Assembly: GCA_905178155.1 (NCBI GenBank)
Contig: CAJINV010000007.1
Location: 1,643,341-1,707,340 of the forward strand
Length of the DNA stretch: 64,000 bases
Source of the DNA: Amoebophrya sp. A120
Taxonomy: Eukaryota; Protista; Dinoflagellata
Reading direction: 5' to 3'
The notes below the pieces were generated by a model. That model had not been told where the DNA came from. It ran no database searches and was given only the letters and a program-made list of their open reading frames with translations. Below, in pieces: positions 1 through 52,358 of this stretch. A program made the position numbers and the translations under genes. Position 1 is the first letter of the stretch. Each line of letters starts with the position of its first letter.

Positions 1-807
1 GCGCGCCAACCTCCGCCCACCAATTTCGCTCTACGCGCCTTTCGACAACGGGAGCAGGCTGCGGCGCGGAGGACAACTCCTGGCGAAGATCGCAACAGGG
101 GCTTGGGAAATCTCGAGGCGCTGAGACGTGCGTTACCACCAGACGGCGGTACCCAGGAAAAAACACCCATCCCCATCCATTTTTTGCATGACCGATAGTG
201 GATTTTATGCATGTTCTGCATCACAAATTGGATGGGGATGGGTGTTTTTTCCTGGATAGGCGGGCTGAGCAGTATACAAGAAGAGGAGGAAGAACAACAA
301 GTGGGTGAAGATGTTATTTTTGATACAACCAGTGGCGATGCAGATGCAGATCTACTTCATGCGGAAGACGAAGATGCCGAAGCCGAGCAACAACAGAGAG
401 GAGGCACCAACATTATTCAGCACCAGGACTCCTGGAGGCCAGCGCCAGAGCTACAGTTTCGCCCGCCGGCCCTGCCCACCCTTCTCGCTGTTCCAGAGCA
501 GCTGCAGCATGAACTACATGACTTTCCCTCCCCTGCGCCGCCAGGTGGAGGAGCTCTTGCAGCAAAACCTAACAGCAGAAAAAGACAGCTGGAGCGGTCC
601 CACAACTACCACAACGGGTATCTTCGTCTTCCTGATTTCGTTCCACAGGAAGCAACTACACCTACAGAGCCCGGTGTTGTTTTACCGCCTCCAGGACGCG
701 AATCAACGCAGATGATGAAGTATAGCAATATCGTGCCAAGGCATGCAGGAACAAACCAAGAGTTGTTGCCAAAGTCCTCGACTGAGAGGGTGCATGCCGA
801 AGATTAA
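1..807 (+). CDS. 3' part of a low-complexity acidic/Pro-rich hypothetical protein, interrupted by introner IE1
   Basis: Frame 1 is open from base 1 to the element at 150, hits a stop inside the element, and resumes in the same frame (GLSSIQEEEE...) to TAA at 807. Confidence 0.7.
150..258. mobile_element. Introner/MITE-like element IE1, family A (109 bp)
   Basis: TIR TAcCCAGGAAAAAACACCCATCCCCATCCA ... TGGATGGGGATGGGTGTTTTTTCCTGGATA; direct repeat GGCGG at 145-149 and 259-263. Confidence 0.93.
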
Positions 808-2234
808 CCGTATGCTTGAATCAGGTCGTCGATGTTGCCTTGGACATCACAAAGTGCGGTTGGTAAGATGGCCACGAGGAAATTCCACGGCGGGCAGTTA
901 AAAAAGCGTCCGGACGAACGTTTCCTCACTAATATCTTTTCGATGGAAAATTTTTATCTCTTGTTCACCATCATGTTGTCACACAAAAATCTTTGTATAT
1001 TCATACGCATGGTAGCCATCTCAAGCTTTACCTTTAAGAATTATCGCAAAAACATACAAGTACACGAACAAGCATAAACCATACGATCAGTGAGAATTGT
1101 CGTTGTGTCTGCTTCGTTACCCTCCAGCGTTCGACAGCAAAGGAGCCGTGCAGTTTCGCATTTTTCTGTCGAGATACTGACAACTGATACCCTACATCGT
1201 GCCGATACCGATACAGATTTCGATTTTTTTTCTTTTTTGACTCGGATGAAGAGGAAAAAAGATAGAAATTCGACGAAGCTTTTGCTTCGCCTCTCTTGTT
1301 TTTAGAGAAACTAGGGGCGGTGGAAAATTGCCTCTATACTACAGCAGAGCCTTCCGAGGGGTCAAAAGCAAGGTGTATGATCACGGGAGAAAGACGCTTG
1401 TTGGAGCTGAAAGCATGGAAGCCCTAGCGCTGGAAAATATCAAAAAGAAGAATCGCACTGCATAATCGACATGCCAAAAGTTGTGATGTGGTATAAGGCG
1501 TAAGCGTATCCCTGCAAGAAAAGAAGAAAAAGCAGAAGGAATGTAGCCCCGGTGTGTTACTTACTGGCGTTCTGAGGATAGAGGAAATTGACGACTGCAA
1601 GTTCTGATTTACCGGGTCGCTGCTGAAGAAGATCGTACTTCCCTTTTTACCCCCGTCACGCAAGGCTGCCCTGCTTCAGTGACGCAAGGCCAACGAACCG
1701 GCGTGAGTGTGAGAGTGAGTTCTTCCCATGAAGATCCCTGCTTTCCTCACTAAGGAAAGCTCGATCGTTGCTGTCCTATCAGGATAAAGAAACAACAAGA
1801 TGAAGCTCCTGAGTCTGAGTGATAGACTGCATAATTGTATGGACCCGCGATCAAGAACATGGAAGCCGAAGCGGAAGTACGGGGTGTGGATCTCCAGGAT
1901 CACGGTGTTGAAGTTGTGTTTCGGTTTATTTCCACAACCATGGAACGCAAGTTTTGTTTCATTCTGAGGATCTAGTTTACATGATAGATGATTTCGATAG
2001 TAACAATGGTGGAAGTTGTTCCTGGTTGAAGTTGAAAGGTACCAGTTGTACCGCACAACACGACCAGCAGGAACAAGAGAAAGAGTTCATAGCTCTACAT
2101 ACTTCTGGAACAATCAATGCACATCGCAGGATTCTGTTTCGCCATTCACATTGTGTTGAGTAGCTGCAATAAAGTTAGTTTTACCGGCTTCAGAGCTAAA
2201 TTTGATTTTCAAAAGCTTCAAGAAATAAAACAAG

Positions 2235-4820
2235 ATGCCTCGTTCCACTGCTCATCTCTCACGCCACCGAGTTGTGTCTATCACTTGTGTCGTGGCGTGG
2301 ATATTGCCCGGTTGTAGCTTGTTGACCACACAGCTCCTGCAAAGTGTCCTCGTAGAGGCGAAGTGGAAAAAAGCGAGTTCCTCTAGTACAACTCAGGAAC
2401 AAGCACCACAGCGGGTGCCGGACCACAGCTCGCCGCTTGCTCAGGACGACGTCGGAGATATTTTCGTGTTCGGCGCTACTTCTCCTTCTGGGGGGACAGG
2501 GACAGGCCGTAGCCGTACGTTTGTTCGCCGCGGTCGCAGCTTCAAGAACGGAAGTTCGTCGAGTACAGCAGCTGCAGCCGGTGTCGTGTCCTCCTCGAAT
2601 TACGGCGAGGAATCATTTCTAAGTAGAAACCGGAACAAGAAGAGGGCGGTGTTTTCAGAGCAGGAGCAAAGTCTCCGCCAACTGTACCTGCACCTGCAGC
2701 CGGCGCAATCTGTCTACGTGCCTGAGCCTGGTCCCAATGATTTTCATTTTCGCGGTGAAGATGTTCCTGGTGTTCCGCTCGAAAAGGGAAGTGCTGTTCT
2801 GCTGCACCAACAACACGGTCGTGATGGAGGTGGTTCCCGAGAAGAAGCAGGAGTTTTAGAAGTACCTCGTCCAGCAATTATAGCAGGCGAAGATGGCGCA
2901 TCCGCATCTACTTCTCAGGAACAGCATGAAAACGACGAGGGAATTCAAATTCAGCAGGAACAACAAACTGAAACTTCTGGCATAAATGCTCTGGCGGATT
3001 TGATGCATCAAATGGAAATTTCGCCACGGGACGAGATTGTGGAAGCACAGCATGACGAACCGTCGGAAGTCGATGTTGAAACCGAAAGCACTCCTGAGGA
3101 GGCGGAACACGAAGACGAGCTACATGGTCTGATGAGCCAAGGAAATGTGGAAAACCACGATGACGAAAGTGAAAGAGAGGATGAGGACAATGAAGATCCC
3201 AATAACACGGATCACGATCATGATGAACAAGTAGTCGAACCTGAGCCCTGGAGGTGGTTCCCTCTCGTTTCAAAAAATGGAAGCGGCGGAGATCTCGACG
3301 TTTTGCCGCAAGCCGTGCAGGAGCGTATTGCAAGCCATTTTTTCGAGGAGGAGGTCGACGAAGACGCGTTGGCGGAGATTTTGCCGCTCCCCGCGCCCTG
3401 GGAAGAGCGGAAAGACGAGACCTTTCCCGGCAAGCCGCTCTTTGTCAATCCCGTCACCGGGGAGGCAACTCTGGCCCGACCGCGCCGTCCTCCGCTTGGA
3501 CCTGACTATCTTATCGACAGGGAAGAGCAGAGATATTCATCGCACTAGTAGTCGTGAGCATGCTTGTGGTCTAGTATGTACATGTAGTTGGCAGATGCAT
3601 CTACTTGAGAGGAACCACAAACGCAGTCTGTCTGTCGTGCTGGAAACGTCACATTCACGGTCAAAAAGAGAAAAGAGAAATTTGTGCTGTTGGATTCCAA
3701 GAAAACCTACGATTGCGAGACTTTTGCACAGCATGCGTCGGGCAGTCAAAAGTTTAGGTGGGCGTGTTGCCTACCACAATGTCGTGCACGATCTGTACCA
3801 ATGGGAGCATCCTGGAGAGATGGAAGAAATTGAGTACCTCAATGACGATGAGTATGCTAGAGATGTCAGATGTGTGTAATGAAATCGACAAAATGCAAGT
3901 GCTGGTATGCATCATAAGCATCTGGTGTAATTCTACTCACTGCAAAGTACGTGTTGGTAACCATGACCAGTGGGCGAGCAGATCGTTATTTCGAGGCAAA
4001 CATTTTTCGAGCACCCGATGGGACAAATTGTAGGCCCAAGAAGTACTTCTTGTGTTGCTTTTTTATTGCGATCCCACGACAAGAGGTTTTTTTTGCATTT
4101 TTACGATGTCCACCCACGACCTGACACCTACATACTGTTCTGGCGGAACTCGTACTTCCCGAGCCCTGGGTCCGGGTGGGGACACCACCGGCCGACCCGG
4201 TATCAAATGTAAAAATGTCTGGGTCTGGAAGAATGCAAGATTTGTGATGCAGGTTTTCCATGACCCATGAGGTCTGGAATGCGAGACCCAGCATGACAGA
4301 TTCTTTGAGGTCTCTATCGTGCCTTTCTTGCGTGAGAAACTCCCTCTCAACGTGGTCAAATGCGGACAGCTTTTGGCACTCACGCAACACAGATTTTTGC
4401 ATCATTCAGATTTAGCAAGACAGGTTCTAATCTTCCAGACCCAGACATTTTTGCAATCCATACCCGGAGCTGTATCACAATTCTGTCACGGGCGAGTTGA
4501 CATCGACCCGGCCTCGGCTGCCGCCTCTCATGGGAAGCCCGACCTGGCGTGCCTACCGCACGACCAACCCGGTGGGCCCGATATGGTACTGGAATATGGA
4601 GACCGGACATTGTCAGGCCGAACACCCGGGCGGCCGTGTGGAGGCAGAACGAGCAGAACAAGACCACGTGGTCGCTCCACCGCAGCACGATGTTGACCTT
4701 CAGGGTCAGGCTTCGGAAGAGGACGTCGTGCACGACGTAGCAGCACGAGACCATCGAGAAGGTGGAATAAACCTTCCGGCCGTGCTGGAAGGTCCGGCTC
4801 CGGTCGCGGAGGGGGAATAA
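2235..4820 (+). CDS. Putative secreted acidic protein with about four C-terminal WW-like domains (exons about 2235-3520, 3736-3864, 4137-4200, 4468-4820)
   Basis: Hydrophobic N-terminus. WW-like units: LPAPWEERKD..GKPLFVNPVTGEATLARP, GGRVAYHNVVHDLYQWEHP, LPEPWVRVG..ELYHNSVTGELTSTRP (formed across IE2) and PTWRAY..PIWYWNMETGHCQAEHP. The first two junctions are uncertain. Confidence 0.6.
3519..3735. mobile_element. Decayed family-C introner remnant (left boundary approximate)
   Basis: 3716-3735 CGAGACTTTTGCACAGCATG matches the family-C terminus CGATACTTTTGCACAGCATA. 3538-3551 CATCGCACTAGTAG matches the other arm. No intact TSD. Confidence 0.55.
4201..4462. mobile_element. Introner IE2, family B (262 bp)
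   Basis: TIR core AAAAATGTCTGGGTCTGGAAGA ... TCTTCCAGACCCAGACATTTTT with TAT/ATA ends; TSD CCCGG at 4196-4200 and 4463-4467; removal rebuilds a WW domain. Confidence 0.93.
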
Positions 4821-6735
4821 ACACGAGCGGAGGCCTGGTAGAAACCGGTCCTCCCGGTGGGTCCGACGTATGGTAATTGTATACCTCACTCATAGGTACT
4901 GGCACTCGCACTACAGCTATTTGAAGTGCGAAGGATGAAGTCATGCCATCGTGTTTCCGAACTCAAAATAATGTAAGTATAAAATGAAAATATCGTTATC
5001 GTATTCGTATACCTATACGACGAACAGAAACAGTTGAAGAGAGTGGAAAAGATCAGGAGCAGAACTAGGACCAGTCACAGGCTCTTGTAGAAATAATCGA
5101 GCCAGGATTTTTAGTTCTTGTTGAGCTGTGACATTCAGTGTCTATACATTTACATAGGACTGCAAGCATTCAAATCGGTTGTTATTGACTTTATTTCGAG
5201 TGCTGGAGGCATTCATACGGCCTACACCTACATGCAGACGTCTGCGAGGCATGTTATTGTCGTTGATGTTGTGCGACGAGGATGTTGCGCCACTGAGGTC
5301 CACCAACGGCGAAGCTGTGAAAAGAGTTTTTCCACATGCTCGCCACATATGGATGGACGTTTTGTTTTGCGGCTACAGAAGGACTTACTAGAATTTTCTG
5401 TCTTTGCTTTATTTTTCGAATTCGGCATTGCAGCCTGAAAAAGGAGCAAGAGAAGCATATATTGAACAATTTTTGACGATGATGTTGTACATGGTCATGG
5501 ATTTGGATATGCATAAAGCTTCATTATGGATCGCAGCAAGCGGATCATGTGAAATAGTTTGGAGGAGCGCCACGACCACTCGAAGGCATTGTATGATTGA
5601 AGAACGTAAACAAGACAAAAAGATCAAGATGAATTTGAATGATCGAAGAAAAATAATTGAAGCAAGACGAGAGGGAATAAACGATCCTCAGTGGTTTTTA
5701 TGTGCAAACATTGTTTGCCAGCATGCGTTGCGTGGGAACAAAAGTGGGAAGACCTCCAAGGGCGGTCGGCAGCTATTGTTCATCTTGCAGAAGAACTTCT
5801 GGTAGTATTACAGCCTGTTCTTGGTAGCTCCTCTTAAAGCCTGATGGAGGATTAGCATAGGCTCGTATGCTACGGAGAAAGAAGAAAATGCACTCGATCA
5901 GGACATGATCACGTGTGGACTTGGATCATCCTGAGGAAGATCGCGCTCTTCACCGGATTTTGTCTTTTATTGGACGACGGTAGCAGCACATATGACAATG
6001 ACATCGATCAGGGATCTTCATCTTGTTTATGGTCGAAAACGGTTTCTAATTCTATGTTGGTCTAGTTCTTGTCGAGCCTCCCTCTACTACTCGGTGTCAA
6101 CGTGGTCTACAGGTAGGGCTCTCTCGAACTCCGAGATGGCAAGTACAGTAGAGTTGTTCGAAAATCATCATGACAATAATTGTGGACCGGCACCGCCACG
6201 ACCGGCAGTCAAACTCAAAGGTAAAGGAAAAGCAGACGCAAACAAGCTTTAAGCTCACATACCGAGCCGTGATCATTCTCCTGTGTCGCGCTCGTGGTCA
6301 TGGTGCAGTTGCATTTCGACGATCTACGGATCACTAAACGAAGATCTCAACAGATAAATTCCTTCTGATGGGCCTTTGCCGCTGGCACAGATATACACTG
6401 TTACTTTCTATCTGTCTATTCTCCAACACCACACCACAATCAGTCAAATACGGGTGTTACCATAATTCGTATGTATGGAAAGTTTTTTCCTTTACGAAGT
6501 CTTGTAGCAGTTCTTCCCGAGCTCCTCCTTCATTTTTGATCGACCGCACGACACAAACAGTACAGGTTTTGAAACGCCAGTATTTGGTTCGGTTTTTTAT
6601 TGCTACTCTTGGTCTTGCCAAGTGCAAGTACTTGTATAGGCTTTGTGTATAATATAATCGCGTAAAAAGAACAAGAGAATTTACAACGCAGGAGCACGGG
6701 CAGCTCATCTTCCTTGTTGTATCACTTACTTCACC

Positions 6736-14952: not shown

Positions 14953-16152
14953 GTCCGCCTTTCTTAGATTGAGCGATTGCTTCAGGGGGGATGAACGAGG
15001 TGGATGTGCAGGCACGGTCACGGAAGAATCTTCTGAGAGTGGTTCTAGCAGGTCGATTTTTGGATTATGGAAGAAACAAATATACTAAGTACATAAATCA
15101 AGGTCATAATCGCCGGCGGCAGATTCTTTTTCAGACTTAATAACTCAGCAGTTGCGCATACGTGTCTTATTTTGAAAAATTAAACCACGCACCTGCACAG
15201 CTCACCTATCTTGATGTGTCGCGAACCTGTAATGAGACTTGAAAACGTCGAGAAATAAACCGGCACTTTTTATTCGAGAAAGAAAAAATGAATTAGATGA
15301 ATCATTCCTTCGAAATTTGAGAAAGCCAAGTTTTTTCTGCGGTAGGAGAAACACATACACAAGGAGAAAAGAACCATGTTGATGTTGGTTGCGGGATGAA
15401 TAAATAGATTCTATCTAAGCAAAAACCATTATCTTATGACACAGAAGAACGTGCAGAAGTTGTAACCACAGTGTGTTGATTGTGTAGCAAATGGGATTTT
15501 TTTCTCCTTCAACAGCGACAAGACAAAGAACGAGCCCTGATTGCGATGCCATTCTCGCCGGTATTGAGAACTTTCGAACAAGGAAGCGTGTTCGCGAATG
15601 TATCTAGACCTCCTTTTGGAGGTAGTAGCAACTAAAGCACATTAGGACAATGAAGATGTGAAATTCAAATTCGTAGCAGGGATTATAATCTATCTCAACA
15701 TGGTCGTGCAATCGCTTGTGTAGAAAAGCAGAAACACGGCACAGTCAGACACAAGAGTAAGACAGAGGAGGGTGCAAAGAAATGAAAGACCTTCCACCTT
15801 GATGCTGTGATCCATGACCACGAATACTACCACACCAGGGGTCGACGTTGGCGTCTCCGCTCATACATGTATGAACCACATAAACCATAACCATATAGTA
15901 AGTATGTAAGTAGAGTTGTAGTATTAGTTTTTAGTAGTTCATGTTGCGTCTGGAATGACAAAAATAGTGAGAAAATTCCAAGTGTAAGTTCGTCATTCCG
16001 ATGACATACGAAAGAAAGAACCGACCGCTTTAGGAGAACGAGCGTTCGCTGAATTTCATGTACTTAGTTACATCGGCAAGAACCGGAGTTGATAGCTAGC
16101 TTATGTATCGATCCAATCGAGAAAGAAACACAAACAACTATAAGAGAGGAAG

Positions 16153-19100
16153 ATGGACCGGCGTACTCGTGTCGACTTCGTGAACTACTCGTCCATATGA
16201 ACTGCAAAAATGTCTGGGTCTGGAAGATTTCAACTTGTCATGCCGTTTTGGAACTGTAAAAAAATTTGTATTGCATGACCAGCAAGAGGGGTGCAGTTTT
16301 TGCTACGCGGACAGGGCATTTCTCATGCGGAAGGTGCATCAGAAAGCCCTCTAAAAGTCTGCGATGCTAGGTCAAGCATTACAGGCATCATGGGTCATGA
16401 GAAATATGCATGTTGACAAGTCTTGCATTCTTTTTCTTCCAGACCCAGACATTTTTGCATTTGATAGTCCATCGAGTACCGATTCGGCGGCGAGTACTTC
16501 GAGTCCGGGACCTGGCGGGATGCAAAAGTGAAGGAAAACAGCATTCCCAAAGCTGCCGGGCAACAGCAGCAGCAACAGCAGCCGCTTACCGGGAATTCGC
16601 CGGCGAAGTCTAGCACTTCGCCCTCCGTACTACTAAAGAAGGAACAACTGCCGGCGAAGAAGAAGGATGGCAGTTTACCGGGTAGCACGTCGATCTCCTT
16701 CGTGAATAACTCGTGGGTAGCCGGGGTCGCGGGCTACGTCTACTACATCGGCTCGGATGGGAGCTGTATCCACAGAAAAAAACCCATCCACATCCATTTT
16801 TTGCATGGCAAACACATGATTTGATACGTGTTTTGCATCACAAATTGGATGTGGATGGGTTTTTTTCTGTGGATAAGCTGTATCGAAATCGCTTTCAAGC
16901 ACCCCATGATCGGGAGTAACTATGCTGTGCAAAAGTATCGTACTCGTAGTAATCGCAGTCATGCATTACAAATCTCCTTCTTAACCTAAATCCGCATTGC
17001 AAATTCCATTTTTCATGCTGAGGGAATTTGTCATGCGATTTCTACTAGTACGATGCTTTTGCAGTTCATAGTAACTTGTTTACCGCAAGAAGACACTCGA
17101 CCTTTACCGGGAATGCGAAGGTAATATATGATGTCCTGGTGATGTTGCCATTGTCCAGCGTTGCGCTTGCGTATAATTTTTGATGCGGCGCACCCAAACG
17201 CTTGCGCTTTAGTTCGTTGCTTTTCGCATTTATTATTTTCCAGGTCGACAGCAGGCAGTAGATCTAGATTAGCGACTCGGACGAGGCCACATATTCATAA
17301 TCCAAAACCCAGGCTCTTTTCGAGTGCGCCCCGGAAGCCGCTCCGGAAGGTGGCAAGACCCGGTCGAAGCAGTCCAACCTCGGCTGGGTCACAGTGAAGA
17401 ATTCCGCCGAGGACATGCGAATAACCGTGGTGATACCAGACACAGCGACAGACGACTTACAGAATGACGAGGTGTTCAAGATGATCGCGCAGCAACACAT
17501 CCTCTGTCCCTCCTACGCCACCGTGAGCCACCAGGGCACCACCGCCATGACCCCCGGCACGCCGGGGGATTACAACGGAGGAACGAACTTCGACCCGCCA
17601 GACCGACTCTCCCCCGGCGGCGCGGACGGTGCGGCCAGGACGTTTGTGGTGCAAATCGAAAACCGGAGTGAAGAGGAATTCATTTTTGACGGGGATTTCT
17701 TCATCGGCGGGCAGTGGGGCGGGCGGAAACCGCACATCAAGCCAAGTGGTAGTAGTAAGCCTACTAGTTCATCGACGTCTACTACGCCAAGTAGCAGCGC
17801 TGTCGGTGCTGAACAGAGAACGAACAACCCTGCTTCCCCCTCCAAAGCGCGGTCCAAGGACACGACGACACTGACGTTTAAGTCCGACGCGCTAATGCAG
17901 GGAATACAGGGGCTGACGTGGTTTGTCAACGCGAGGAACATGCAGAAATACCTGTGCTTGTGCTTCTCCAATCCCATGTTCGGCGACGGCATTTTCTTCG
18001 CCTCCTGCGGCCACCCACCACACGAATTGAAGGAGGTGCTGGTGGAAAGCCAGGCGACGTTGGCGGGTATTTTTACAATGAGTTCTTTCGTCAGTAGTTT
18101 GAAGATTTCTCGGCTGATGAGTTTGAGTTTATTGGTGATCGTGATGAGTTTGAATATATCATGTCGTGAGGGAACTACAGGTGCAGTCGGTTGGCTCTTG
18201 CTTGGATCCGCTACTTTGAAGTAAGTATTAACGGAAGTAAGAAGAAAACAAAAATCACCTGCACAATAAAACCCAAAAAAACAACTACAACAACAGCGAT
18301 GGGCACGGACAAACTACACTCCCGTCCGGAGCAGGGCGTCGCGTGGCAAGTGGTCGAGATGAGTGCGTCGTGCCACCGCGTGAAGCTCATCATCCTGGAA
18401 AAGCTGCCGTCCATCGACTGGGGCCTCTACCCACCACCCAAGCCCAAAGTCAGGAGAAGAAGCAGCACGGACCAGGTGCCGTCAGGTACTAAGTGTATCA
18501 GATATTAGAAAGTTTGTGTTTGCGGAACTCTATTGCGTGTACTAGCGTCTTTACCGTTCGTCGGTGCTGCAGATCATAAAGCGAGGAGTAAGTACGAAGA
18601 TGGCCGCGTACTTACTATCACACTGAACTATAACAATTTTTCCACACGACAGCCACCTCCACCCCTTCCACAGCCGCTCCGGACGGCAAAACCGAGACGA
18701 TTTCTATCCCTGAAACCCCGCCGGAGCCCTCAGAACCGGAGGTGGAGAACAACTACCAACTGATGCTCCGCAAGGATGACAAGAAGGACGGCGAAGTCGA
18801 CGTGGTCACCGCGACTCTGGATAGTACGCGGCCGCGCGACGCTTTGGACGGATTAGGCCAAGGGTTAATGGCCGCTGGCGGCGGGATTCTGGCCGGGTTC
18901 GCCGCGCTCGTCGCGTCCCCGATCGTCGGCGCGCAGCAGGACGGCGTGTCCGGGTTTTTCACCGGATTGGGCAAAGGAGCGGTCGGCGCGGTGGCGCTCT
19001 CCGCGGGTGGAGTTGTGGCCGGGACGACGCAAATTGTCCGCGGGGTGGCGAACACGCCGGAGGCGCTGTCGCAGGGGAGCAACATGAAGTGGGACAGCAC

Positions 19101-20995
19101 TCTGGGGAAGTGGGTGGACGACACGGTGAATTTGCGGGAATTGGAGTCCGGAAAATTGGAAGAGTCCGAGTCGGAAGAGGAGGAAACAGAGGAGTTGAAG
19201 GATAAGTTCGGGGAGAAAGTTTTAGAAACCGAATACTACGACTTACTCGGCGTCCCCGCGACCGCCACCCCGGGGGAAATCAAGAAAGCCTACTACAAGA
19301 AGGCCCTGGTCTGCCACCCGGACAAGAACCCAAACGATCCAGAAGCGCACAAGAAGTTCCAGGAGCTGAGTCAGGCGTATAAATACATTGTTTTCATCTT
19401 GTGGCTGTGGTTTTAGATTTTTCGTGTATCTATGCTAAAATGAAATGCTTCTTGTGTGTGGTCCCTTCTTTCTCCTATATGTGCACGACTTACCGAAGTC
19501 GAGGAAGTTTTTTTTTTTTTTTATCAACATGATGTGACAAATGTGAATTGATATCGCTTTTAATACTCGTCACAGCTACCAAATCCTGTCCGACCCGCAG
19601 CTTCGCGAGACATACAACCGAGTTGGAAAATCCGGACTCTCCCAGCAAGACATGCCGGACATTGACCCCGCGCTCTTCTTTTCCGTCCTCTTCGGGTCCG
19701 AACAGTTCGAGGGCTACATTGGCAAGTTGTACATCGCATCACAAGCCGAGTCCCTGATGCAGAAACTGCAGAAGAAGGAACAGGTGGACAACTTGGAGCA
19801 GGACATCAAGAACGGCAAAGTTGATTCCCTAGTCACCGACAAGAGCAAGAACACCGCGAAACGGCTGAAGCGGAACCAGGTCCGCCGGGAGATCAAGCTC
19901 GCCATCGCGTTACGCGACCGGCTGAAGCCCTGGGTGTTGCTCCGGGACGAGAAAAACTTTCTCGCCGCCATCGCGGCGGAGGCACAGGAGCTGAAGAAGG
20001 CGAGCTTCGGACAGCGGATGCTTGCGACGATCGGGTTCATCTACGAAAACAAGGCGGAGCAGTACCTCGCGGAGCAGGGCGGTGAATGGAGCCTGTTTTC
20101 CGCCTCCGGGTGGAAGGAAACGGGGGCGAAGACGCAGCGGAACATGCGGTTAGTCGGGCAGTTGACGAACGCGGGTCTAGCACTCAAGAAGCTCCACGCA
20201 GAAGCGCAGAAACTGGACGAGGAAGATTTGAAAGAGGAGGGAGATGAGCAAGCGGATAAAGCTGCAGCAGCAGAGAAGAAGGACGGCGATGTTGGCGGTG
20301 ACAACAAGAAGGACAGCGCCAGTGCAGCTTCTAGTGCATCTGCTGCTCCGGGAGGTGCCGCAGCATCAGCTAGTACATCTTCACCCAGTAAAAGCGCTGC
20401 AGCTGCTGGCGCGACCCCAAAGGGAGGTCCTGCTGGGACGAATACTGCATCAACCTCTTCAACGTCCGCCGGCGCAGCAGGAACAGCATCAGGAGCCCAA
20501 TCTTCATCAACAGGAGCAGCAGCAGGCACTGCAACTACAGGCGGGACAACATCTTCAGCAGCCCAAGCTCCGTCAAAGCCAGCCCTTACCCCAGAAGAGG
20601 AAGCGAAGAAGAAGCAGCAGCAGGAAAGGAAGAAGCAGGAGCGCAAAGCCGCTGCAGCCCGGGAGATGGAACAGTCGCTGCCGATCTTTTTGGAGATCAT
20701 CTGGGAGTTTTCCGCCTCCGACATTGAGTCCACCGTCGCGTCGGTGTGTAAATTCTTCCTCTACGACGTGTCCGTCCCGTGGATTCTGCGCATCCGCCGG
20801 GCCGCGGCGTTGCAGCGCGTGGGACGGATTTTTCAGGACATCGCGACCATGACGGACAAGGAATTAGATTCCGCGGACGCGAAATCAAAGCTGGAGCAGG
20901 CCTTTGTCACCACGATAACGAAGGAAAAAGGGAAAGAGAAGGAGGGCGGCAAGGGGAGTGGTAACACGCCGACCAGCGGCGGGGCGAAGGCGTGA
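16153..20995 (+). CDS. J-domain/DnaJ-X protein with two N-terminal aegerolysin/actinoporin-like repeats and an ATG2/VPS13-C-like Gly-rich amphipathic segment
   Basis: A continuous ORF results after removing IE3, IE4, IE5 and GT-AG introns 17121-17312, 18067-18296, 18486-18652 and 19377-19575. J domain YYDLLGV...[18 protein letters not shown]...[14 protein letters not shown] is followed by [16 protein letters not shown] and an X-domain. Confidence 0.85.
16196..16466. mobile_element. Introner IE3, family B (271 bp), opposite orientation to IE2
   Basis: TIR TGCAAAAATGTCTGGGTCTGGAAGA; TSD GTCCA at 16191-16195 and 16467-16471; removal gives [12 protein letters not shown]. Confidence 0.94.
16767..16875. 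mobile_element. Introner IE4, family A (109 bp)
   Basis: Perfect TIR TATCCACAGAAAAAAACCCATCCACATCCA; TSD AGCTG at 16762-16766 and 16876-16880; removal gives [14 protein letters not shown]. Confidence 0.95.
16921..17070. mobile_element. Introner IE5, family C (150 bp)
   Basis: TIR TATGctgTGCAAAAGtATCGTACTcGTAGtAATCGCA ... TGCGATTTCTACTAGTACGATGCTTTTGCAGTTCATA; TSD GTAAC at 16916-16920 and 17071-17075; removal gives PMIGSNLFTAR. Confidence 0.94.
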
Positions 20996-21559
20996 GCTGT
21001 AGAGGAGTGATGACGATCGTCGTGCGCTTGTTAACCTGTGGTCCCTGTACTGGATAGATAGATCAAATAAACCATGCTGACGCACGATATTTTTGGAGAT
21101 GAAGACTAGCCATTGTATCAGGAGACTACCTAGTAGTCGTGGCGCAGACAGAAAATGGACTTGAAAGCGACTTTTTTTTACAAGAAGATTTTCCGGCAAG
21201 ATTGATTCATACTTTACACATACGCGACTCCGCGGCTATCTTATGTTTTTCCTGCCCTCCCAGTCTACAGACTTCACTCACCTCAATAAAGATAGACGTC
21301 GCCCTTCGTCTGTTTTCATGTCACGACGACGGCGACGCGCAGCTAGCAATAGCATCGCCTGCATCTGCTGCCCCGTTTTCTTCAACCCACGTGAGTGACC
21401 CACAAACAGAAAGAAACCTGCTGCACAGACAACATGACTTCTTAGAGCAGTAACATTTTCCCATGTAGCATTTTATGGCAAAGGCACATGATCATGCGCC
21501 AAAAGGAAAAGCAAGAAGGAGAAAATGAAACTCAGCGCCTTGTTCTACAAAGAAAACGC

Positions 21560-23850: not shown

Positions 23851-24477
23851 GTTGATTATTCTATCTTTGCAATTGCATTCTAGTGATGGCCATCACCAAG
23901 CGGCACAAGCTCCGTCCTCACCTTCCTATGCCATCTGCAGTTGCTCGATGGATGAATACGAACTGCCGCTCGGCATTTGGATTTGCATCATTTCTAGTAA
24001 GTATGTATTTCGAGACCCCGAGGGAGCCTTTCACAACTCGTTTCGTGCGCCATGAGGGCAAAATAACAAGCCGCAATGCCGCCAGAAGGAAGTAGGACCA
24101 AGGCGCAGCCGTGTTTGCTTTTGTGAAAGCACACGTATGTGAAGCGACAGTGTGGCTCCGGCTCGGCATTGAGAGATAAACTTAAAATAGTAAAGGAAAA
24201 CCCGACGAGAACGTGGTAGACACCAAATCCAAAGAGAGAGCCTTCAAATGAAAAACGTAGAACGAGATGGTGCAGAACTGGCCAAGCCTGCACGTCGAAC
24301 GTAAGCCTCCGGCGCACTTTCTTATTTTCAGTAGTGACGTGCAGCTCCGGCTTCTGTTCCTTTCAGTTTTTCGTTTTTGTCGCAGTGTTCTACATGACCA
24401 ACAAGAGCTAGAACATGGAAGTCCAAGTCTTGTTGTGAAGTTCAGCGCTTTTTCTTTTCACCCATCGCGCATCAACA

Positions 24478-27400
24478 ATGTCAAAGCCGAGAAACATTCG
24501 CGCATCCCTTTCGAGTCCAAGCCAGCAGTTCTCGGACCCTGGCAGCCAGGCCTTGATGAACACGTTTGGCGTCATGATGCCGGATCCCGATCCCGCCCCC
24601 CTTTCCGTCCACGATTTTGAGGGGGTGCCGCTCGATCCAAATGAAGCCGCTGCGCAGAAGCTGTTCCTGGAGCAGCCAGGGCATGGTCTTCATGGGAGCA
24701 ACAAAAGAACAACCCAGCAGAAAGACCAGGAGTTCCTGCTAGGGAATGGCAGTTTCGGGAGTGTGCAGAAAGTCAGGCGGCGCGGGACTAACGATGTCTT
24801 CGCCTTGAAGATCATGAAGAACGCCGATGTTTTATCTGGTATAGCGATCCTCGATAGGAAAGTTGTACGCAGTAAAGATGAAGTTGTTTTTCGGCACGGA
24901 GTTAGCTCGAACTAGCTACATCAGCGCATTTTGACCATCTTGATAAAAATGATGAGTCGTGTCGTGTAGCTGCTAAGTGGTAAAGAAATTACTTACAACC
25001 TCGCACAAGAACGACAAGAAAAGACTCGTCGCAACAACAAGGTAATCTGACAGCCCAAGTGGAGCGCGAAATCGGGATCCAGCGGTCCTGCAACCACGAG
25101 AACGTCCTCCGACTCCACGCGGACTTCAAGGACGAGAACTGCACCTACATGCTGCTGGAGTACTGCCCGAACGGGGAACTGTACCAGATCCTGAAGAAGG
25201 CCACCTTCTTTTCCGAAAGACGGGCCTGCCAGTACTTTCTCCACGTGAGCAACGGACTGCAGCACCTGCACACGAACAACATCATCCACAGAGACTTGAA
25301 GCCGGAAAATCTGTTGGTGTCCAACCATGACGTGATCAAAATCGCGGACTTCGGCTGGTGCGCCGAGTGTGTTTGTGTCAGAAACGGAGCAAGAAGTGCA
25401 ACCTCTGGGACGAGTTTTCATTCAAGTAAGGTGAACAAGAGGAAGCGGAATGTCGACTCGTCTCCGATGCAGAAGGCACGGATTCTGGCACCGCAGTTGA
25501 ATTTGAAGTGGTCGCCGTTGGAGAGAAGGAGAAAGGCAAAGGACGATCAAGGTCGTGGCGAAGCAGGTGATTCCGCTACTTCATCTCCAACTGAAGAGGA
25601 AGCAGGCAAGGAAGATGATCTCTCGGACCACTATCGCGACCCCACTACGAGTTCTGCTTCGTCTCCTCCCCTCCGCCGTTTCACTTTCTGTGGCACGCTG
25701 GACTACCTTGCGCCGGAGATGATCGAGGGCACAGGGCACGACCACAACGTGGATGTGTGGATGGCGGTATCCACAAAAAAGGACCGATTCCCATCCAATT
25801 TGTCATGCAAATCATGCATCAAGTTCAGTGTTTGCCATGCCCATGCGCATGCAGACAATGGTAATGGATGGGGGTTGGTGCTGTTTTTTCCTGGATAGGC
25901 GGGGGTGCTGCTGTACGAAATGGTGAAGGGAAAGCCCCCGTTCTACTCCCCAAACCACGCCCTGCTGATCCAGCGGATTCTGAATCTGCAAATCCAATGG
26001 CAACTGGGGAATCTGCAGATCTCGAAGAGTGTCCGAACCCTGATAACGAAGATGCTGAAGCCGAAAGCGGGTGAGAGGGTGTCGCTAGCGGAGTTAGAGA
26101 CCGACAAGTGGGTGTTGGAAAACACAAGCATGACGCTGCTGGAGGAGCAGACCGGCGTTGGCTCTTTCCGCCCGGCGTCGAGGACGAATTCCGGGTGCGG
26201 TGGAGGGACCGCCGCGGGAAAGGGAAGACAAGGTACAACTAAGCGAGAACTGAGTTTTTTGCAGGTTGTTTGCACGAACGTAGTTTGTGTTGCATGGACA
26301 TGAAGATGTTGTACAACTTAGAACACAAGTCTTTATTGCACCATCGCTAAATCACCTCCTCCGGCATAAGAAAAAAATATCAACATCAGATGTGGACATC
26401 CCAGAAACGCCTACGGTCATGGGTCGCGAACTGAAGGCCACTCCCGCTGCCCCGGCAGCGGTGAATAGCTTGGCAAGTTTTGGAGTGCCGGCTCACGTGC
26501 CGGTCGTGGCCGAAGTGACGGCGGGAGCGGTTGAGAAAGGTAAAGCAAGCGAAATTACTCAGCGTCTTCAGCTTGAGGAGTGAGGTTTATCTTTCTGTGC
26601 TGCTCCTATGTATTGCCTTGAAACTCGAGCTACTTTGTTTTTGATGTTGGATTTTCTCTCCAATAAAACCAGACGCCGGGGACGTAAATCTCTCTGCTCT
26701 TTCGTTACAGGTCTACTCGCGGGTATAGCAGCTTCATCGCAATCGGACGTGGTGCTTGATGTCGCGGAGCAGCCAAAAATGTTCCCGGAAAAGAACTTCG
26801 CCAAATCCACCTCGAGCTCGAAAAACCGTTCCGTGTCGAGGACGAAGCCGGAGACCACGACTCACACGATTAACAACCCAGCAAGTACTTCGGCGATATC
26901 CACATCCTCCTCCAGTACTACAACAGGTACTTGTACCAGTCGAACCAACAGCCGTATCGGCCGCCCGCCACCGACCACAACGAGCACGAACGCGCGACGA
27001 GTGTCGCCGAAACCGGTGGCCAGGTCTTCGCCGAAGCCGATGAACAGGGTCCTATTTCCCTCGCGGGTCGGAGGTGGTGGCGGTGGCGGGGGTTCTTCCT
27101 CTAGCAGCGGGGCGACGTCGTCGAGTGGGCAACACAGTTCCTACCCCAGCCATTCCTCCGGTGCGCAGTCCGTACAGGTGCAGAACCGGGTGCTGGGGGT
27201 TCGAGCGGTGAGGAGTCACACGACCAGCAACTTCGCAGGTGGTCAGGTGGGTGGATCATCTTCAAGCTCATCCTCTACTCCGTCTTCTTCAGGGGCGGCG
27301 GGACAGCAGTTGCAACCTGCTTCGTCCACTGTTGCTGGTGGTGCAAATGGTAATCCGCACAGGAAGAGTCCATTTTTCACCACGACAACGACGACAACAA

Positions 27401-36947: not shown

Positions 36948-38362
36948 ACGAAATGAGATCGCGGCCGTCGACAACATGACCGACTAGTGATAGATAGTGT
37001 TGTACCAAGAAATAGGAGCAATAATTCTTTCAACAGACTGGTGACGAGAAGCTGCTTTTTAGTTTTTATCCAGTGGTTGATCAACAACTCACGTTTGGAA
37101 GCTTCTCCTTTTTATGTTTCGGTTGATGTATGATAGAGATTGCGTTTCATCGCTGCATTTCATTGTTCAGTATCGAGAAGAAATACTGATGGCTAAAAGT
37201 AAAAATTCATACAGTGTCATGAAGTAATACGTGAGGCTGCGGCCGCGAAAGACAAAAGAGAAAGACGCCTCGACTTTGGTGTCATTGACGTGCTGCATCA
37301 TGAAATCCTTTTACTTAATTTCGAAGTGAGAGAAGCGAAGTTCTTGTGTAAAGACATGGACAACTACACCATAAGTGCCCGGAGGTGATGACGAAAACAC
37401 ACTTCACATTGTAGCAGGTATGGATTCGGACGAGTTTTAGAGTTTCAGTTTCACTTTTACATGAACGACAAAGACACCTCCTTTGCGCTAAAAGCATGTG
37501 GTGCGAGATGAAGGAGGATAGAGCAAAACATTCACGCAAAAATGGCTCTATAATCAATGAAGATTCACTTGTTGGTTTTCGAGAACAGGAAAATTTTGCA
37601 ATTGCTCGGTTCTCGTTTTTTTTTTCCTGTTCTGTTTCGGTCTTTTCTACACCCCTGCCCTGGTCGTGCACCAGAATGACGAGAAATAGTAAAGAGCCAG
37701 AGAGGTGTGAGGACCCCTTGGGCTTGGATAGCATCAGATACTGAGAGTGAGGGCGTCAGTGTGAGGAGTTCAATTCTCTTCATCTACGCTTTCCTATGCA
37801 GTTCCGGCTGTTTCATTCTGAGAGGTTGTATGTGCAAATTTCTCAATGAAGACGCGAGAATCTGGACGATGGAATTTCCGTGTCCAGGAGTGAGGCTGCT
37901 GCAATTGTTGGTTACGGAACTCTTAGTTTTCTACATCATATCGTAGAAACGCATGAACCCAACGTAAAATTAAAAACAGGACACAGATACACAGACATTC
38001 GCGCACCCCATGATTTTAGCTACCCTCAAAAACACTCTCTTACTCTTCCATTTTTGTATCGATAGCAATAGCTCTTGCTGGTTCTTTGATTCATCTCTGT
38101 TTTCTCTCACTCTACTGTATAGATCGTAGTTACCCACTTCTCTACCCGCCCTGAAAATGAAGATAGGTGTCTATTCTGCTCCCCATTTTTATTGCCGAAC
38201 GAAAAAAATATAAATCATTCTTGTTCTTCTTCTTTATCTTTCTCCCCGACCCCGTCATGTACATGTTTTCAATCGTGAACTACATCGAGCCAGGTCGAAA
38301 ACGGGTGTTCAATGGTTCTTGGCCTAAATGTTGACGACGCTTTCTTCTCACGACTTCTTCGC

Positions 38363-41300
38363 ATGACCACGGGCCGGATCATGCCACCGGGTGTGATAGA
38401 CCAAGGCGTGGGCCCACCCTGGACGGTGGAATACGATCCGAACAACGGTAGACCCTATTACTACAACACCCAGACCGGCACAGTCTCCTGGACCAAGCCC
38501 GGTGAGCAGTGGAGTTTATGAACTGCAAAAGTATCGTACTAGTCGTAATTGCAATACAAATTAGAAGCTCAGCATGACAAATGGAATTTGTCATGCTGTT
38601 TTGCCTTGGGATGGAGATTTGTAACGCATGATGATGATTGCAATTACTACGAGTACGATACTTTTGCACAGGATAGAGTTTGAGCTACGATAACGTTTCG
38701 AATCAGCAGTACTGGATCGATGCGCAGGGCAACACAAAACCGCTGCAGCCGTACCTTTTTGAGCGATTTTTTTGTGTTGTTTCTAGTATAGGTCGCGCTT
38801 TCTGCATGCCTTGATTTCGTTTCCAGTATCTAAATTCAAATTGCAGACGAGACTATCAGATGGCTGCGAACTTCATTCTCAACATAACATCGTGATGAAA
38901 ACAAAAAACCGATACAAAAACAGGCCCACGGTGGCCTCCGGCTCCCGACCCGCTACCCCACGAGGTGGTGGATCCACGACGCCGCGCCTCACCCCGCGAT
39001 CGTCCATCCCCGACTGGTTTTCCCAGAACAAAGACTCGCTGCTTTCCGCCAAGTCCATGCAGCCGAAAAACCAGTACGCAGCGGAGGAGGAGATGCGGTT
39101 CCAGCAGCAGCTTCTTTTCCAGCAAAATCCGAATCTCATCCCCGGGATGGGGGTAGGGACACCGAGAAATAACCACCGGCCGGACCCGTACCTCTACACA
39201 CCCGAGGACGCCATGGTCGGGCACGGCTACAACGGTGGGCAGCATTCGGTGAGCGACAGTGTCGTGAGTTCCGCCATGGTGCCCAGGAACACCACCCCGC
39301 GGAAGTCGCGGGTGAGCCCCACGGGATCCAATTCTATCGCGGATTCGTTGCAGAGCCCCATCGTCCAGAACGGGCCGCCGGCGCTGCGGTTGTCCAGTAA
39401 TTTGACCACGACCTCGTCGGTTTCGCACAGTCGCAGTTACAACCTCCCGCCGGGCAACCTTCGGGGCGAGGGCGAAAACGCCGGTCCGCTGAGCGGCGCC
39501 ACGACCCCGCAACGGGGGCCGAGTCCGCAGGGAGTGGCGTCGATAGGGAAGACAATCATGTCGCCCGAGGTAGACGGGGCTGCAGGGGAGGACGTGATCT
39601 CCTACAGCCGGTCGCAGTCTCGATCCGTGGTCGAGCTTCTACTTAACGGCCGGCAAACGGTAAATGACAACGATGGAGCAGCATCAGAGGTCGTCACTAC
39701 ACCAAGAGGCAGTACAAGCATAAACCAGAACTACTCGCCTCGGTATGAGAAGGTCGGCACGCCGCGGCAGTCGACGCCGCGAGGAGGGATAAGTAGGAAC
39801 TACGCAAGCAGCGCTGGTGTAGTTCCGAGAATACAGAATCTGAATGGGACACCAATCCATAATCGAAATAGCAACCAGCAAGCGCCGTCCGCCGCGGCGA
39901 TACAGAATTTCAGAAGCGCCTCAATGGTGTCACCACGCAATAGCGCGTCCTCTACGACTGGTGGAGGTGGATCGTACCACTACAATAACGGCTCGTCGGT
40001 TCTTGTGTCCCCGCGGTACAGCAGCTCCACGCACGCCACGTCGACAAAAGACTCCTCCAGTGGCGCACCTGCCTCGTACGCTTCGTCGGCGTCTTTACAG
40101 CAGGAGCAAAGAACGAATGACCCGTACGGTACTTCTAGTAGTACTGTTGCACCAACTACAACCACCTCTACCCACCATCTTCAAGAGCAACAGCACGATC
40201 CTTACGCTACGTCTGCGGCTGCTCAAGGCTCCTCATCCAACGACCCGTATGCAGCTGCACCGGTCAGTCCTACCGCGGCCAGCAACGATCCCTACGCGTA
40301 CAATAATAGCGCAGTGGATGAGCGGCAAGAGGAACAACACCAGCAGCAGCAGCAGTACTACGGTACTAGTGCAGGTGGGGGCTCGCAGAGCAGCACCTAC
40401 TACAACAGTTCGACGTACCATCAGGGAGGTGCTAGTAGTGGTCAGCACCACCAGCAAGAACAGTATAACAGCTACGAGCAACAGAACTACAGCCAGTATC
40501 CGCCTGGGTATAATAATCTTCCAGAGAACTACGACCACTACCAGCAGCAGCAGCAACGGTCTGATTACCATTCTCGCCAGCAGGACTACTACGGCAACAG
40601 CTACCCACCACCTCTGCCAACCGAGCAAGGCTACCACGCAGGAATGGTGCAGCCCCGTCCTTTCGCTGGTGGTCCGGGTCACCAGGCACCAGGTCCAGGA
40701 GGGCAGCTGCCTCCGGGAGGACCGGGACCGCCTCCCGCCTCTCCCCAGTATATGAATAACCATCAGCATCAGCTGCCGCCGCAGCCCGTCCAGCCGCAGC
40801 CGCGCATACCCCTCTCGCAGGTCAATATGTCGGCCGCGGCGAACCTCCGAACGGGGGGGAATTCTTCAACGAGCATGATGCACCAAAACCTCGCAATGCA
40901 CCAGAGAAATAACCTCCAACTCCAGGCGCAGTACTACGCGCCGGCCCAACCGCTGTTCGCCGAGCCGCAGTTCCATCCGGGGTACGGCATGCGCGGGGGT
41001 GGTGGTGGTCCTGTTCATCCCGGGGCAGGAGGTGGTCCACCGGGAGGAGGTAGCGACCGTGTGATGCCCGTCTACAACCAGAGTCGGGCGCCACAGCCGA
41101 GTCTGCAGCAGATGGATTTTGCGGCGGACCACGAAATGATGCACGGTTTAGAGGAGATGATCCGGGACCCCCGGGTCGCGCGCGAGCGGGACTTTTCCCC
41201 CGACGAACGGGACAAAATCAAGCGCTGGGTCCGCAAGGCGCAGGAGTTCAAGGGACAAATTGTCGAGGCTCTCGCCGATTACTTCTCGGACAGTAACCCC

Positions 41301-41769
41301 AACGACATACCCACGCCACAAATCTCGGGGGCGGCCACTTTCGCAGACGTATATACATAGTTCAGAAGTGATTCATCATTTCAACTGCTTGTGTGGAGAT
41401 GCATTTTTTTCAAACCAATGGATAGTAGTCGTAGTGATTTCTCCATATCATTAATCATGATTTTTGTTTCGTGCGGCAATCTCTTCTCGTCGTAGAAAAA
41501 AAAAACAAAAAAATCTCCATTTTACAATACAGATGTACGATCAAGGCGGTTCTCATAACCAGAACGCGGCGCAGCACCGATACGAGCTCCCGGATGACCG
41601 CAGCGGCGGTGCGGACCAAGACAAGTCCAACTTGCGCGTGAAGATCGAGAGCAGTTTGGAGTTCCTCTTTTCGCGATTTCTGAGTGGCAAGAAGGAGAGC
41701 GATCCGGCCTTGCCCGGGGCGGAATACGCGTACAATCGCGGGAGAGCGCCACCAGATCCCTTTCCATAG
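38363..41769 (+). CDS. WW-domain protein with long Ser/Gln/Tyr/Pro-rich region
   Basis: PPWTVEYDPNNGRPYYYNTQTGTVSWTKP; a second WW-like unit QWSLSYDNVSNQQYWID forms across IE7; GT-AG introns 38751-38923 and 41349-41532. Confidence 0.8.
38517..38675. mobile_element. Introner IE7, family C (159 bp), opposite orientation to IE5
   Basis: TIR TATgaacTGCAAAAGTATCGTACTaGTcGTAATTGCAAT ... ATTGCAATTACTACGAGTACGATACTTTTGCACAGGATA; TSD GAGTT at 38512-38516 and 38676-38680. Confidence 0.94.
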
Positions 41770-50191: not shown

Positions 50192-50562
50192 CAACAGTAA
50201 AAGTACCAGGCAAGAAGTATTAATCTGGTTTATCGAACCTTTTTGGTGTTCCCTAGCTCACGTTTCGGCTGCTCCCATCTGATTGTCTTCGTTATTTTTT
50301 CTCCTTCGAGATCGGGGTTGCAGTTGCTTGTTCGGCGCCGGTGGTACTTCTTCCTCGAACCTCAACCTTTCCCGTTTGTGCGGCCGCTCACTACCGCATA
50401 TCAGCAGGACAGCGGTATTTCGCTTTCGTACAGACTGGCGGTACTAGAAGTAGTTGTCGAGGCAATTTCATTCTTTTGCAGCGGCTACCGGGGTTGCACT
50501 TGCAAGTGCATGTCCAACGGATCTACTTCATTATCATTTACATTAATATACGCAGAGCAATC

Positions 50563-52358
50563 ATGTCGATCGCCTTCCGCTTTGTTTCATCCAGTAGATG
50601 GATCATGCTCTTGGCTTCATCTGCTCCAGAGCTGCGTCAAAAACCTCTTCGGCCGCGCACCTACTACTTTCCACAGGCGCTCTTCTTCCGTGTGTTGTTC
50701 CTTCTTTACGCTTGCCCCGCAGCGAAAGAAACCCAGAATGTCTTTCCGAACGTTGCGGACATGCGGGATGAGCTTCGCGCCGGTGACTACCGGCTGGTCC
50801 GGCCGAGTCCCACGACTAAGACCGCGGAAGTGCAGAAGCGCTACCGGATGGATGGGACAGTTGCTGCGTTCGTAAAGAAGGTGATGGGACGAGTCAACGA
50901 AGCGAAGGAGACCCTGCGCCGAAAAGAGCTGCTCCCAGCGATGAAGGACGATTTGCAAGAGGAAATCAAAGTCACGGACCAGGAACTGCAAGACAACCAG
51001 CAGACGCTCGAAGAGTACCAGGAGGAGTGGCTATCCAGGAAACAACACCCATCCCCATCCAATTTGTCATGCAAAACATGCATGATAAGCTGCAGTGTTT
51101 GTCATGCAAAAAATGGATTGGGATGGTTTTTTTTTTCCTGGACACTGGCGGCAATCCATCTACCGCCAGTATAACGCCACGCTGAAGCAGCACTTCCCCG
51201 AACCAAGGCAACTGGACTTGGAAGTGATCCACCTGCTGACGACGAACAGCCCAGAAAATCGCCGTGCTTTGGAGCCGCTACTGGGCTACGTGGCGCACGG
51301 CCTAACGTCGTTTGGGAACTTCACGAAACACAGCGAAACGATTGCCACTGCCGCGGAGGCCGTTTGGATTCTTAGTTTTAATGACAAGAAAAACCTATCC
51401 TGCGGATCAAATAAAGTATGGTGCGATGCTCGTACTCATTGCGTTGGTGCATGAACGAGATGATCAAAAGGAAAATTGAAATATAATGATCTTTATCCCT
51501 AGCCTGCACTAGCATTCCAAAGGTGTACTTCTCATGTGGAAAACAAGAAATTGTAACGCACTCTAGCATCCGAGTTCGAGTATGTACGAGAAGTGGCGCT
51601 ATTCTTATTCTTTTGCATAAACCCAAGAGATTCTCACATTCGAGTATAACGCGATCGAGAAGTTGGCAGCGGTGCTCGACAATTACTTCACGTACTACGA
51701 CACCACGAGAGATGAGCAAGATACGGCCATGGCGAACCGAAAGGAGATGAAACCGCCGCAAATCAACGTGGAGGCGGCGAAATTCGCCCCGATCGCCGCC
51801 ATGTGGGCGGCGGCGGCCTTGCAGAACTTGGCCGCGAGCTACTGCAGTTCTTCGTCCTCGAGCCGGTGCGAGTGGGCGTGGGATACGAAATCCTCTCTCT
51901 TACAAAACACCACAGCGGTTGTGATCGACAATGCGTTCAACAGGGAGGACATTATGGCCGTGCTCGTGGAGAGCGAGGGGCATCTGTGGGAGAAAATCGC
52001 GGGGCGCATGCTTTGTCAAAACAGCAACAGTAGGAAATTTAGAGACAGTTTGAAACCAGCCACGGTGGAAGATGTGCGGCAGCTAGCAGTTTCGAAAAAG
52101 GAGAAGGCGATGCTGCAGGACCCGAGGTACATGAACCAACTCGCGGTCTGGGCCTTTGCGGGGTTGCTGAAAAATCTGGCGATACGTACGGAGAGCCATC
52201 GCTTTTACGGGGAGGGAGCCTGGAAGTGTTTGTGCGATTTGACGACGAGCGCAGACTGGTTGGAGAGTAGCAAGGCGGAAAAGGCGATTTTGCATTTGGG
52301 CGGGAATGAAACGGACTGTCAGAAACGGATGAAAACCATGCGACAGAGGGAGCTCTGA
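50563..52358 (+). CDS. Armadillo-like helical-repeat protein with hydrophobic leader and coiled coil
   Basis: Frames join after removing IE8 and a GT-AG intron at about 51416-51629; ARM-like helices AAEAVWILSFN, WAAAALQNLAA and FAGLLKNLAI. Confidence 0.65.
51032..51144. mobile_element. Introner IE8, family A (113 bp), reverse orientation relative to IE1/IE4
   Basis: TATCCAGGAAACAACACCCATCCCCATCCA ... TGGATTGGGATGGTTTTTTTTTTCCTGGACA; imperfect TSD GTGGC (51027-51031) / CTGGC (51145-51149); removal of 118 nt gives EEWRQSIYRQY. Confidence 0.9.

Follow-up and report, generated by a model that had tools for sequence, protein, structure and literature searches.

How can insertions that lie in coding exons in both orientations be removed from transcripts that run in one direction only? 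The question is raised by a stretch of 64,000 nucleotides (nt) of the Amoebophrya sp. A120 genome (contig CAJINV010000007.1, positions 1,643,341 to 1,707,340; the whole stretch is called the window here). A first-pass annotation had listed in it eight introner elements, IE1 to IE8, of three families, A, B and C, and had proposed that the hairpin of their terminal inverted repeats (TIRs, or arms) together with a direct repeat, and no internal directional signal, brings about their removal. The reading we favour, with about even confidence, is that the elements are short non-autonomous Amoebophrya transposons, located in coding exons in both orientations and excised together with exactly one copy of the repeat, probably because their symmetric tips are read by a relaxed spliceosome.

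All eight elements and the three families were recovered by a self-comparison of the window combined with an inverted-repeat scan. With refined borders, seven of the eight have TAY...ATA ends and an exact 5-nt repeat abutting both sides, the exception being IE8; seven start with TAT and IE1 starts with TAC (Table 1). The TAY...RTA ends may resemble those of IS3EU transposons. For the assignment of orientation, the internal regions without the arms were compared in eight within-family pairs, each against the best of 300 shuffles. The called orientation exceeded the shuffle maximum in every pair, with scores of 126 reversed versus 7.5 forward for IE2/IE3, 75 reversed versus 18 forward for IE5/IE7, 54 forward versus 3 for IE1/IE4, and 45 in the called orientation versus 6 in the other for IE6/IE8; in two pairs (IE4/IE8 and IE5/IE7) the other orientation also beat the shuffle maximum, at a lower score. 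The orientations first assigned, with family A forward at IE1 and IE4 and reversed at IE6 and IE8 and with IE2/IE3 and IE5/IE7 mutually inverted, are therefore upheld. The list itself was real in all eight entries and overlooked a ninth element, IE9, which lies in the same gene as IE8 and was found by a relaxed scan that gave 0-1 matches in five shuffled windows and that itself misses IE1. The 5-nt repeat is exact in seven of the nine elements and matches at four of five positions in IE8 and IE9. The summed depth of the elements in a DNA run is very high, as expected for high-copy sequences. A weak candidate for a further, decayed TAT...ATA element with a 4/5 repeat, possibly arising by chance, lies at 18496-18578 inside a GT..AG intron.

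The claim that all host genes lie on the + strand holds for IE3 to IE8. The hosts of IE3-IE6 have GT..AG introns within the same RNA contigs, Pfam Pkinase matches flank IE6 on both sides on the + strand, and the host-gene pieces of IE7 and IE8 are 100% identical to annotated Amoebophrya sp. A120 proteins (P0002 and P0001, respectively) on that strand. The same strand is moderately supported for the host of IE2, by a WW-like match that scores 62 when the element plus five bases (+5) is removed versus 51-59 at other lengths and by a classifier margin of 3.4, and weakly for that of IE1 (classifier 2.6 versus 0.8).

For removal from RNA, we compared the contigs of four sequencing runs (X1-X4; two samples, one study) with positions 15850-26400. 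The library type of these runs is not on record, and they are taken as RNA by their behaviour, namely that GT..AG introns are skipped and that 21834-24297 is uncovered. Nine joints are listed on this stretch, five for GT..AG introns and four for elements (IE3-IE6), and at all four elements the excised length is exactly the element plus five. The joined form is seen in all runs for IE3, IE4 and IE5 and in three of the four for IE6, where X4 has no spanning contig, and it is the path that the contigs mainly follow, at full transcript depth (109.5, 103.8, 121.5 and 12.3). IE4 and IE6 belong to the same family, A, in opposite orientations, and both are excised exactly from + transcripts, supporting the proposed orientation-independent removal with no need for an internal directional signal. 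Assembled contigs lose rare forms, so the RNA data say nothing on efficiency. Family C is likely excised in both orientations too, because the annotated P0002 omits IE7 plus five bases and a transcript-derived relative, P0003, aligns best when IE7 is removed at +5 (232 versus 127-137 at other lengths). The annotation of P0001 and P0002 may derive from the same RNA and is not independent support. This strain is absent from two raw RNA runs (X8 and X9), which have 64 and 3 partial reads on the element arms. Family-B-like arms, matching at 16207-16243 and 16466, do occur in raw RNA runs of the same species label and different sequence, implying that the family extends to other strains.

The window holds two to four copies per family, and we therefore turned to a larger sample. 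An exact 24-nt family-B arm used as query returned at least 133 loci, all in one metagenome assembly and with no long match to the window; all counts from outside loci given here and below are among the matches listed. They contain at least 243 distinct elements, 208 with exact repeats and 35 with 4/5 repeats, compared with 2 false calls in shuffled loci, and a scan that did not require a repeat still found an exact 5-mer in 206 of 270 candidates. In 200 outside arms, positions 11-13 each carry A in 172-187, the first three bases being required by the search. The family-B arm was not found in viral contigs. To call the host strand, we used a coding model that had learned from the window exons and was 96% correct at a margin >2 in a leave-one-gene-out test; 200 of the 243 elements passed this filter and 43 were dropped. 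Within a locus, 155 of 169 pairs of strand calls are in agreement, and Pfam matches, found in 5 of 52 adjoining exon pieces with no opposite-strand control, all fall on the called strand (three with elements in the reference orientation, two in the opposite).

The sense versus antisense count per family, which had been suggested as a check, shows no orientation bias that we could detect among these copies. Family B gave 44 in the reference and 56 in the opposite orientation (p=0.27; 100 of ~136 B copies passed the filters), or 16 versus 30 at the strictest margin (p=0.054), family C gave 9 versus 15 of 24, and family A 0 versus 2. Same-family pairs within one locus, which require no strand model, comprise 15 same and 18 opposite for B and 6 and 3 for C. 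The statement that every family occurs in both orientations is thus borne out in the window and confirmed for B and C outside it. One locus (L079, 140-2458) carries seven B and C elements in 2.3 kb in mixed orientations, six of them called on the minus strand with clear margins.

Excision in the outside loci is inferred from reading frames. Among the 168 elements with exact repeats, retention would cause an in-frame stop or a frameshift in 167, and the frame is open in 161 at +5, in 157 at +2 and in 88-112 otherwise, a count that is partly circular. In one locus (L005), removal at +5 aligns best to two of two relatives at a B element and to one of two at a C element, and is best for neither of the two at a third candidate with a 3/5 repeat. 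A helicase piece from the outside assembly has relatives at 71% and 62%, with no identical protein within the searched lengths.

Where, then, could a directional signal reside? In the window, a GT..AG intron is impossible for any +5 placement on either strand of all eight listed elements. In the 168 outside elements, the composition of the repeat equals that of the same-phase flanking coding sequence at all five positions, with G at the first position in 51 (50.5 expected) and at the last in 53 (52.3 expected), and a GT-AG placement is possible in 7 in the sense and 8 in the antisense direction. As the repeat matches ordinary coding sequence and allows GT-AG in only 7 of 168, the landing site is not the source of the splice sites. 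Six of the eight left repeats in the window start with G, and the candidate explanation that the repeat supplies the G of a TAG acceptor or a GT donor failed in the 168-element set. An AG end at one position or another can be placed in 85 elements in the sense versus 71 in the antisense direction, a mild nominal lean. Branch-like words are not enriched in the sense direction (YTRAY in 89 sense versus 105 antisense of 200), and they are rare in ordinary introns too (2/8). The two arms are alike in composition when read in the sense direction. No GT or AG is needed at a fixed place. Because the repeat has coding composition, the arms are alike and branch words are not sense-enriched, we infer that a required directional signal lies neither in the element interior nor at the landing site, and that the symmetric tips likely direct the cut. 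Given an arbitrary 5-mer, one cut or both must lie in signal-free sequence and would be set by the distance from the element end or by alignment of the repeat copies.

In the favoured reading, a relaxed spliceosome would read the symmetric tips, with one cut set by distance. Each arm starts with TAY read inward, and therefore either end of an element would offer N-TAY, that is, the genome's usual donor GTAY minus its first G. The ordinary donors of the window carry GTA in 8/8 and GTAY in 7/8 introns (six from RNA and two from the annotated P0002), so that N-TAY resembles a donor with a free first base, a freedom that the reported loss of U1 would fit. The first cut would then lie one base ahead of the element and the second four bases beyond it, and pairing of the arms may bring the ends together. 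The annotated P0001 retains the left-copy base at position 1 of the IE8 repeat and at position 3 of the IE9 repeat, which is consistent with a cut late in the left copy.

A number of observations weigh against this reading. The likeness to a donor covers three letters in eight introns, and TAY might serve as a signal for the transposase alone. The 3' arms (a T-run, 7 nt, then ATA) are unlike the acceptors of this genome, since the ordinary introns (at 17121, 18067, 18486, 19377, 24839, 26233, 38751 and 41349; ~157-230 nt) have A/C-rich 3' ends without a pyrimidine tract. The RNA evidence consists of contigs from two samples of one study and covers four of the nine elements, and P0001 is an annotation. 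The sense arms of 180 elements show no excess of G-U over A-C pairs (179 versus 196, p=0.44), with one of six settings of this test giving p=0.039 in the opposite direction. Finally, the assumption of a fixed cut is challenged by the imperfect repeats (e.g. L003, L008, L014, L051, L061, L079). Of 32 mismatches between repeat copies, 22 are synonymous, above the ceiling of 0.38-0.48 for a free copy (p 0.0004-0.015), and 16 of 25 at a stricter cut (p 0.006-0.08), in a test that was post hoc with n=32; the mismatches were masked in the strand scoring, and 23 of the 32 fall at third codon positions. This excess, which looks as though coding constraint acted on both copies, agrees better with a floating than with a fixed cut. 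Where the copies differ between A/T and G/C at repeat positions 1-2, the A/T base lies in the left copy in 10 of 11 pairs.

The main rival, which we consider possible though clearly less probable, stands nearest to the first-pass annotation and dispenses with the spliceosome: a structure-specific nuclease would cleave close to the base of the stem that the arms form, and the exons would be joined by a ligase, the joint possibly floating in the 5-nt repeat, as proposed for euglenid nonconventional introns. The lack of a fixed dinucleotide at either end and the arbitrary repeat suit such a route, as does the synonymous excess, which suggests that both repeat copies reach the messenger RNA (mRNA), although it is the post hoc result on few mismatches described above. 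Hairpins are predicted on both strands (z scores on + and -, respectively: IE4, -11.5 and -12.1; IE1, -9.0 and -9.7; IE8, -5.3 and -6.0), and the accessible texts of two euglenid studies (PMC11282704, PMC12501133) report that introns with paired ends exit as circles and not as lariats. However, the stem shows no sense-strand tuning in the G-U test, and IE6 is excised exactly despite a weak fold (z -3.2) whose predicted structure leaves its two ends unpaired. IE9 is annotated as removed despite its decayed arms, and no such enzyme was identified here. Pairing is also frequently missing at arm positions 4, 5 and 7, which are paired in 97, 105 and 69 of 180 elements. The hairpin and repeat proposed as the signal are thus not singled out by the data, which a symmetric sequence signal fits equally well. 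A rather unlikely extension is that Amoebophrya possesses a second, fully symmetric removal system by which every TAT...ATA element would be excised with five further bases, whatever its orientation or landing site, with the joint able to float in the repeat, so that exonic insertions would be harmless without GT, AG or branch point.

[quoted passage not shown] Introners of that type in either orientation have been described (bioRxiv 10.1101/2020.10.14.339549, in its accessible text), and in the window a GC..AG placement is allowed at IE1 and IE6 and an AG end in six of eight elements. Against this, the repeat has no G excess at either end, GT/GC-AG is possible in 10 sense and 13 antisense and G[TCA]-AG in 19 sense versus 15 antisense of the 168 outside elements, 35 of these allow neither GT/GC nor AG in the sense direction, and IE3, IE4 and IE5 are spliced without any GT/GC..AG placement. 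It is more improbable still that RNA polymerase skips the element, the nascent RNA realigning from the left to the right repeat across a DNA hairpin with no splicing step; such skipping would depend neither on orientation nor on repeat sequence and would permit the junction to float, but we found no precedent, none having been searched for, and the same runs contain RNA-type contigs that carry the element, although other copies, unspliced RNA or DNA may account for them. Least probable of all are joints that do not stem from splicing, made by reverse transcriptase jumping between repeats in vitro (a hairpin with a direct repeat being the classic setting for template switching, and the RNA evidence being assembled contigs of unrecorded library type) or by DNA excision in some life stage, since at full depth the contigs mainly follow the joined form, retention would break nearly all outside frames and a kinase domain, and a contig of run X5, which behaves as DNA (even depth ~45-50), crosses IE6 unchanged at a single-copy depth of 44.

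Table 1. Introner elements of the window and their host genes (positions in the window; RNA, contigs of runs X1-X4).
Feature	Positions	Strand	Description
IE1	150..258		Family A, reference orientation; repeat GGCGG on both sides; outside the RNA-contig comparison
IE2	4201..4462		Family B, reference orientation; repeat CCCGG; likely splits a WW-like motif on +; outside the RNA-contig comparison
IE3	16196..16466		Family B, inverted relative to IE2; repeat GTCCA; 276 nt (element+5) missing from RNA; joint 16190>16467, 4/4 runs
IE4	16767..16875		Family A, oriented as IE1; repeat AGCTG; 114 nt missing from RNA; joint 16761>16876, 4/4 runs
IE5	16921..17070		Family C, reference orientation; repeat GTAAC; 155 nt missing from RNA; joint 16914>17070, 4/4 runs
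IE6	25768..25897		Family A, reversed; repeat GGCGG; 135 nt missing from RNA; joint 25762>25898, 3/4 runs; within protein kinase domain
IE7	38517..38675		Family C, inverted relative to IE5; repeat GAGTT; splits a WW-like repeat; annotated P0002 omits 164 nt
IE8	51032..51144		Family A, reversed; ends in ACA; repeat copies GTGGC / CTGGC (position 1 differs); annotated P0001 omits 118 nt
IE9	51396..51619		TAT...ATA, decayed arms; repeat copies AAACC / AACCC (position 3 differs); annotated P0001 omits 229 nt (element+5)
IE3-IE5 host transcript	15850..21538	+	DnaJ and DnaJ-X domains (Pfam); four GT..AG introns; one ~4.3 kb RNA contig per run; start lies just left of the compared stretch
IE6 host, 5' part of kinase transcript	24345..26232	+	Extends past 26390; RNA contigs, Pfam
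IE7 host, WW-domain gene (P0002)	38312..41766	+	Annotated protein
IE8 and IE9 host gene (P0001)	50563..52355	+	Annotated protein

Apart from the elements and their hosts, the window contains an open reading frame on the + strand (6658-7710) with a phage lysozyme domain (Pfam PF00959, E 3e-13), here in a eukaryotic parasite. Three GC-rich repeats of ~98 nt, each with a 40-nt palindrome, lie at 8483-8743, followed by a T-rich tandem array at 8900-9450 with TTTTAGC-like units of 6-7 and 13 nt. A long open reading frame includes a 108-nt tandem duplication with a 70-nt identical core (14517-14743), and a 41-nt near-perfect palindrome lies within a probable intron (35415-35455). GC-rich intergenic stretches occupy 21540-24340, which has no RNA contig cover, 31200-33200 and 52600-53800.

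For the tens of thousands of non-GT-AG introns in Amoebophrya, these results narrow the removal route: the signal would have to be symmetric and located in the element ends, at least one cut would have to fall in arbitrary sequence, and borrowing of splice sites from the landing site is ruled out. If the route proved to be non-spliceosomal, it would constitute a second mRNA splicing chemistry in alveolates and offer a scarless, site-independent cassette.

The system itself is already known, and it is the constraint on its signal that we did not find in print. The accessible text of Farhat et al. 2021 (PMC7789003) describes introner elements of A120 with inverted repeats of TAT, seven looser bases and AAA and with direct repeats of 3-5 nt, counts 29,850 copies, calls them similar to miniature inverted-repeat transposable elements (MITEs) and proposes that a hairpin joins the exon ends. 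It reports most spliceosome proteins as present and U1 as not detected, leaves the removal route and the intron borders open, and uses 'orientation' for genes. The window elements share the TAT/AAA arms, a repeat of 3-5 nt, removal without GT-AG (in all four compared) and repeated families, and they are this published class, because two of the host proteins are those of A120 and the elements' ends, repeats and hairpins match the description; compared with that text, the present analysis adds the orientation counts, the constant abutting 5-nt repeat and its lack of base preference. The accessible part of Gozashti 2022 (PMC9860276) describes a method that allowed for opposite-orientation copies, and that of Gozashti 2025 (PMC12130899) lists diverse TIR introners in A120. 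In the accessible texts our literature search found no orientation count or target-site bias for Amoebophrya, and those of PMC13326754, PMC12005148 and PMC11453091 add nothing on orientation; figures S19-S25 of Farhat et al., the Gozashti datasets, Huff 2016 and the journal version of Roy et al. may contain such data.

The presence of both orientations had been taken to speak against the spliceosome, a step that comparison with other introners does not support. According to the accessible text of Roy et al. (bioRxiv 10.1101/2020.10.14.339549), several classes in Polarella glacialis create introns in either orientation, as do introners of Aureococcus anophagefferens cited there, and the spliceosome is credited with their removal. 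These are, like the Amoebophrya elements, introns made by DNA transposons with target duplications. In Polarella and Aureococcus, however, the target is constrained (GHNN, GHN6, AGGH, NAGGH) and supplies GT/GC/GA or AG, with one orientation favoured, whereas the Amoebophrya repeat shows no constraint, GT-AG placements occur at the chance level, and we detected no bias in orientation. What is shared is thus the creation of introns in either orientation, and not a target duplication that supplies the splice dinucleotides. With MITEs the elements share a short non-coding TIR structure, a target duplication of constant length and a high copy number; unlike MITEs, they are removed exactly from mRNA with one repeat copy, and no cognate transposase was identified, none having been searched for. 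The nearest working analogue is provided by the nonconventional introns of euglenids, for which the accessible texts (PMC12501133, PMC11282704) describe the same non-GT-AG ends, pairing inverted repeats, short direct repeats and suspected MITE origin; euglenid introns carry a CAG/CTG pair near their ends and circles are reported for them, whereas the Amoebophrya termini are TAT...ATA.

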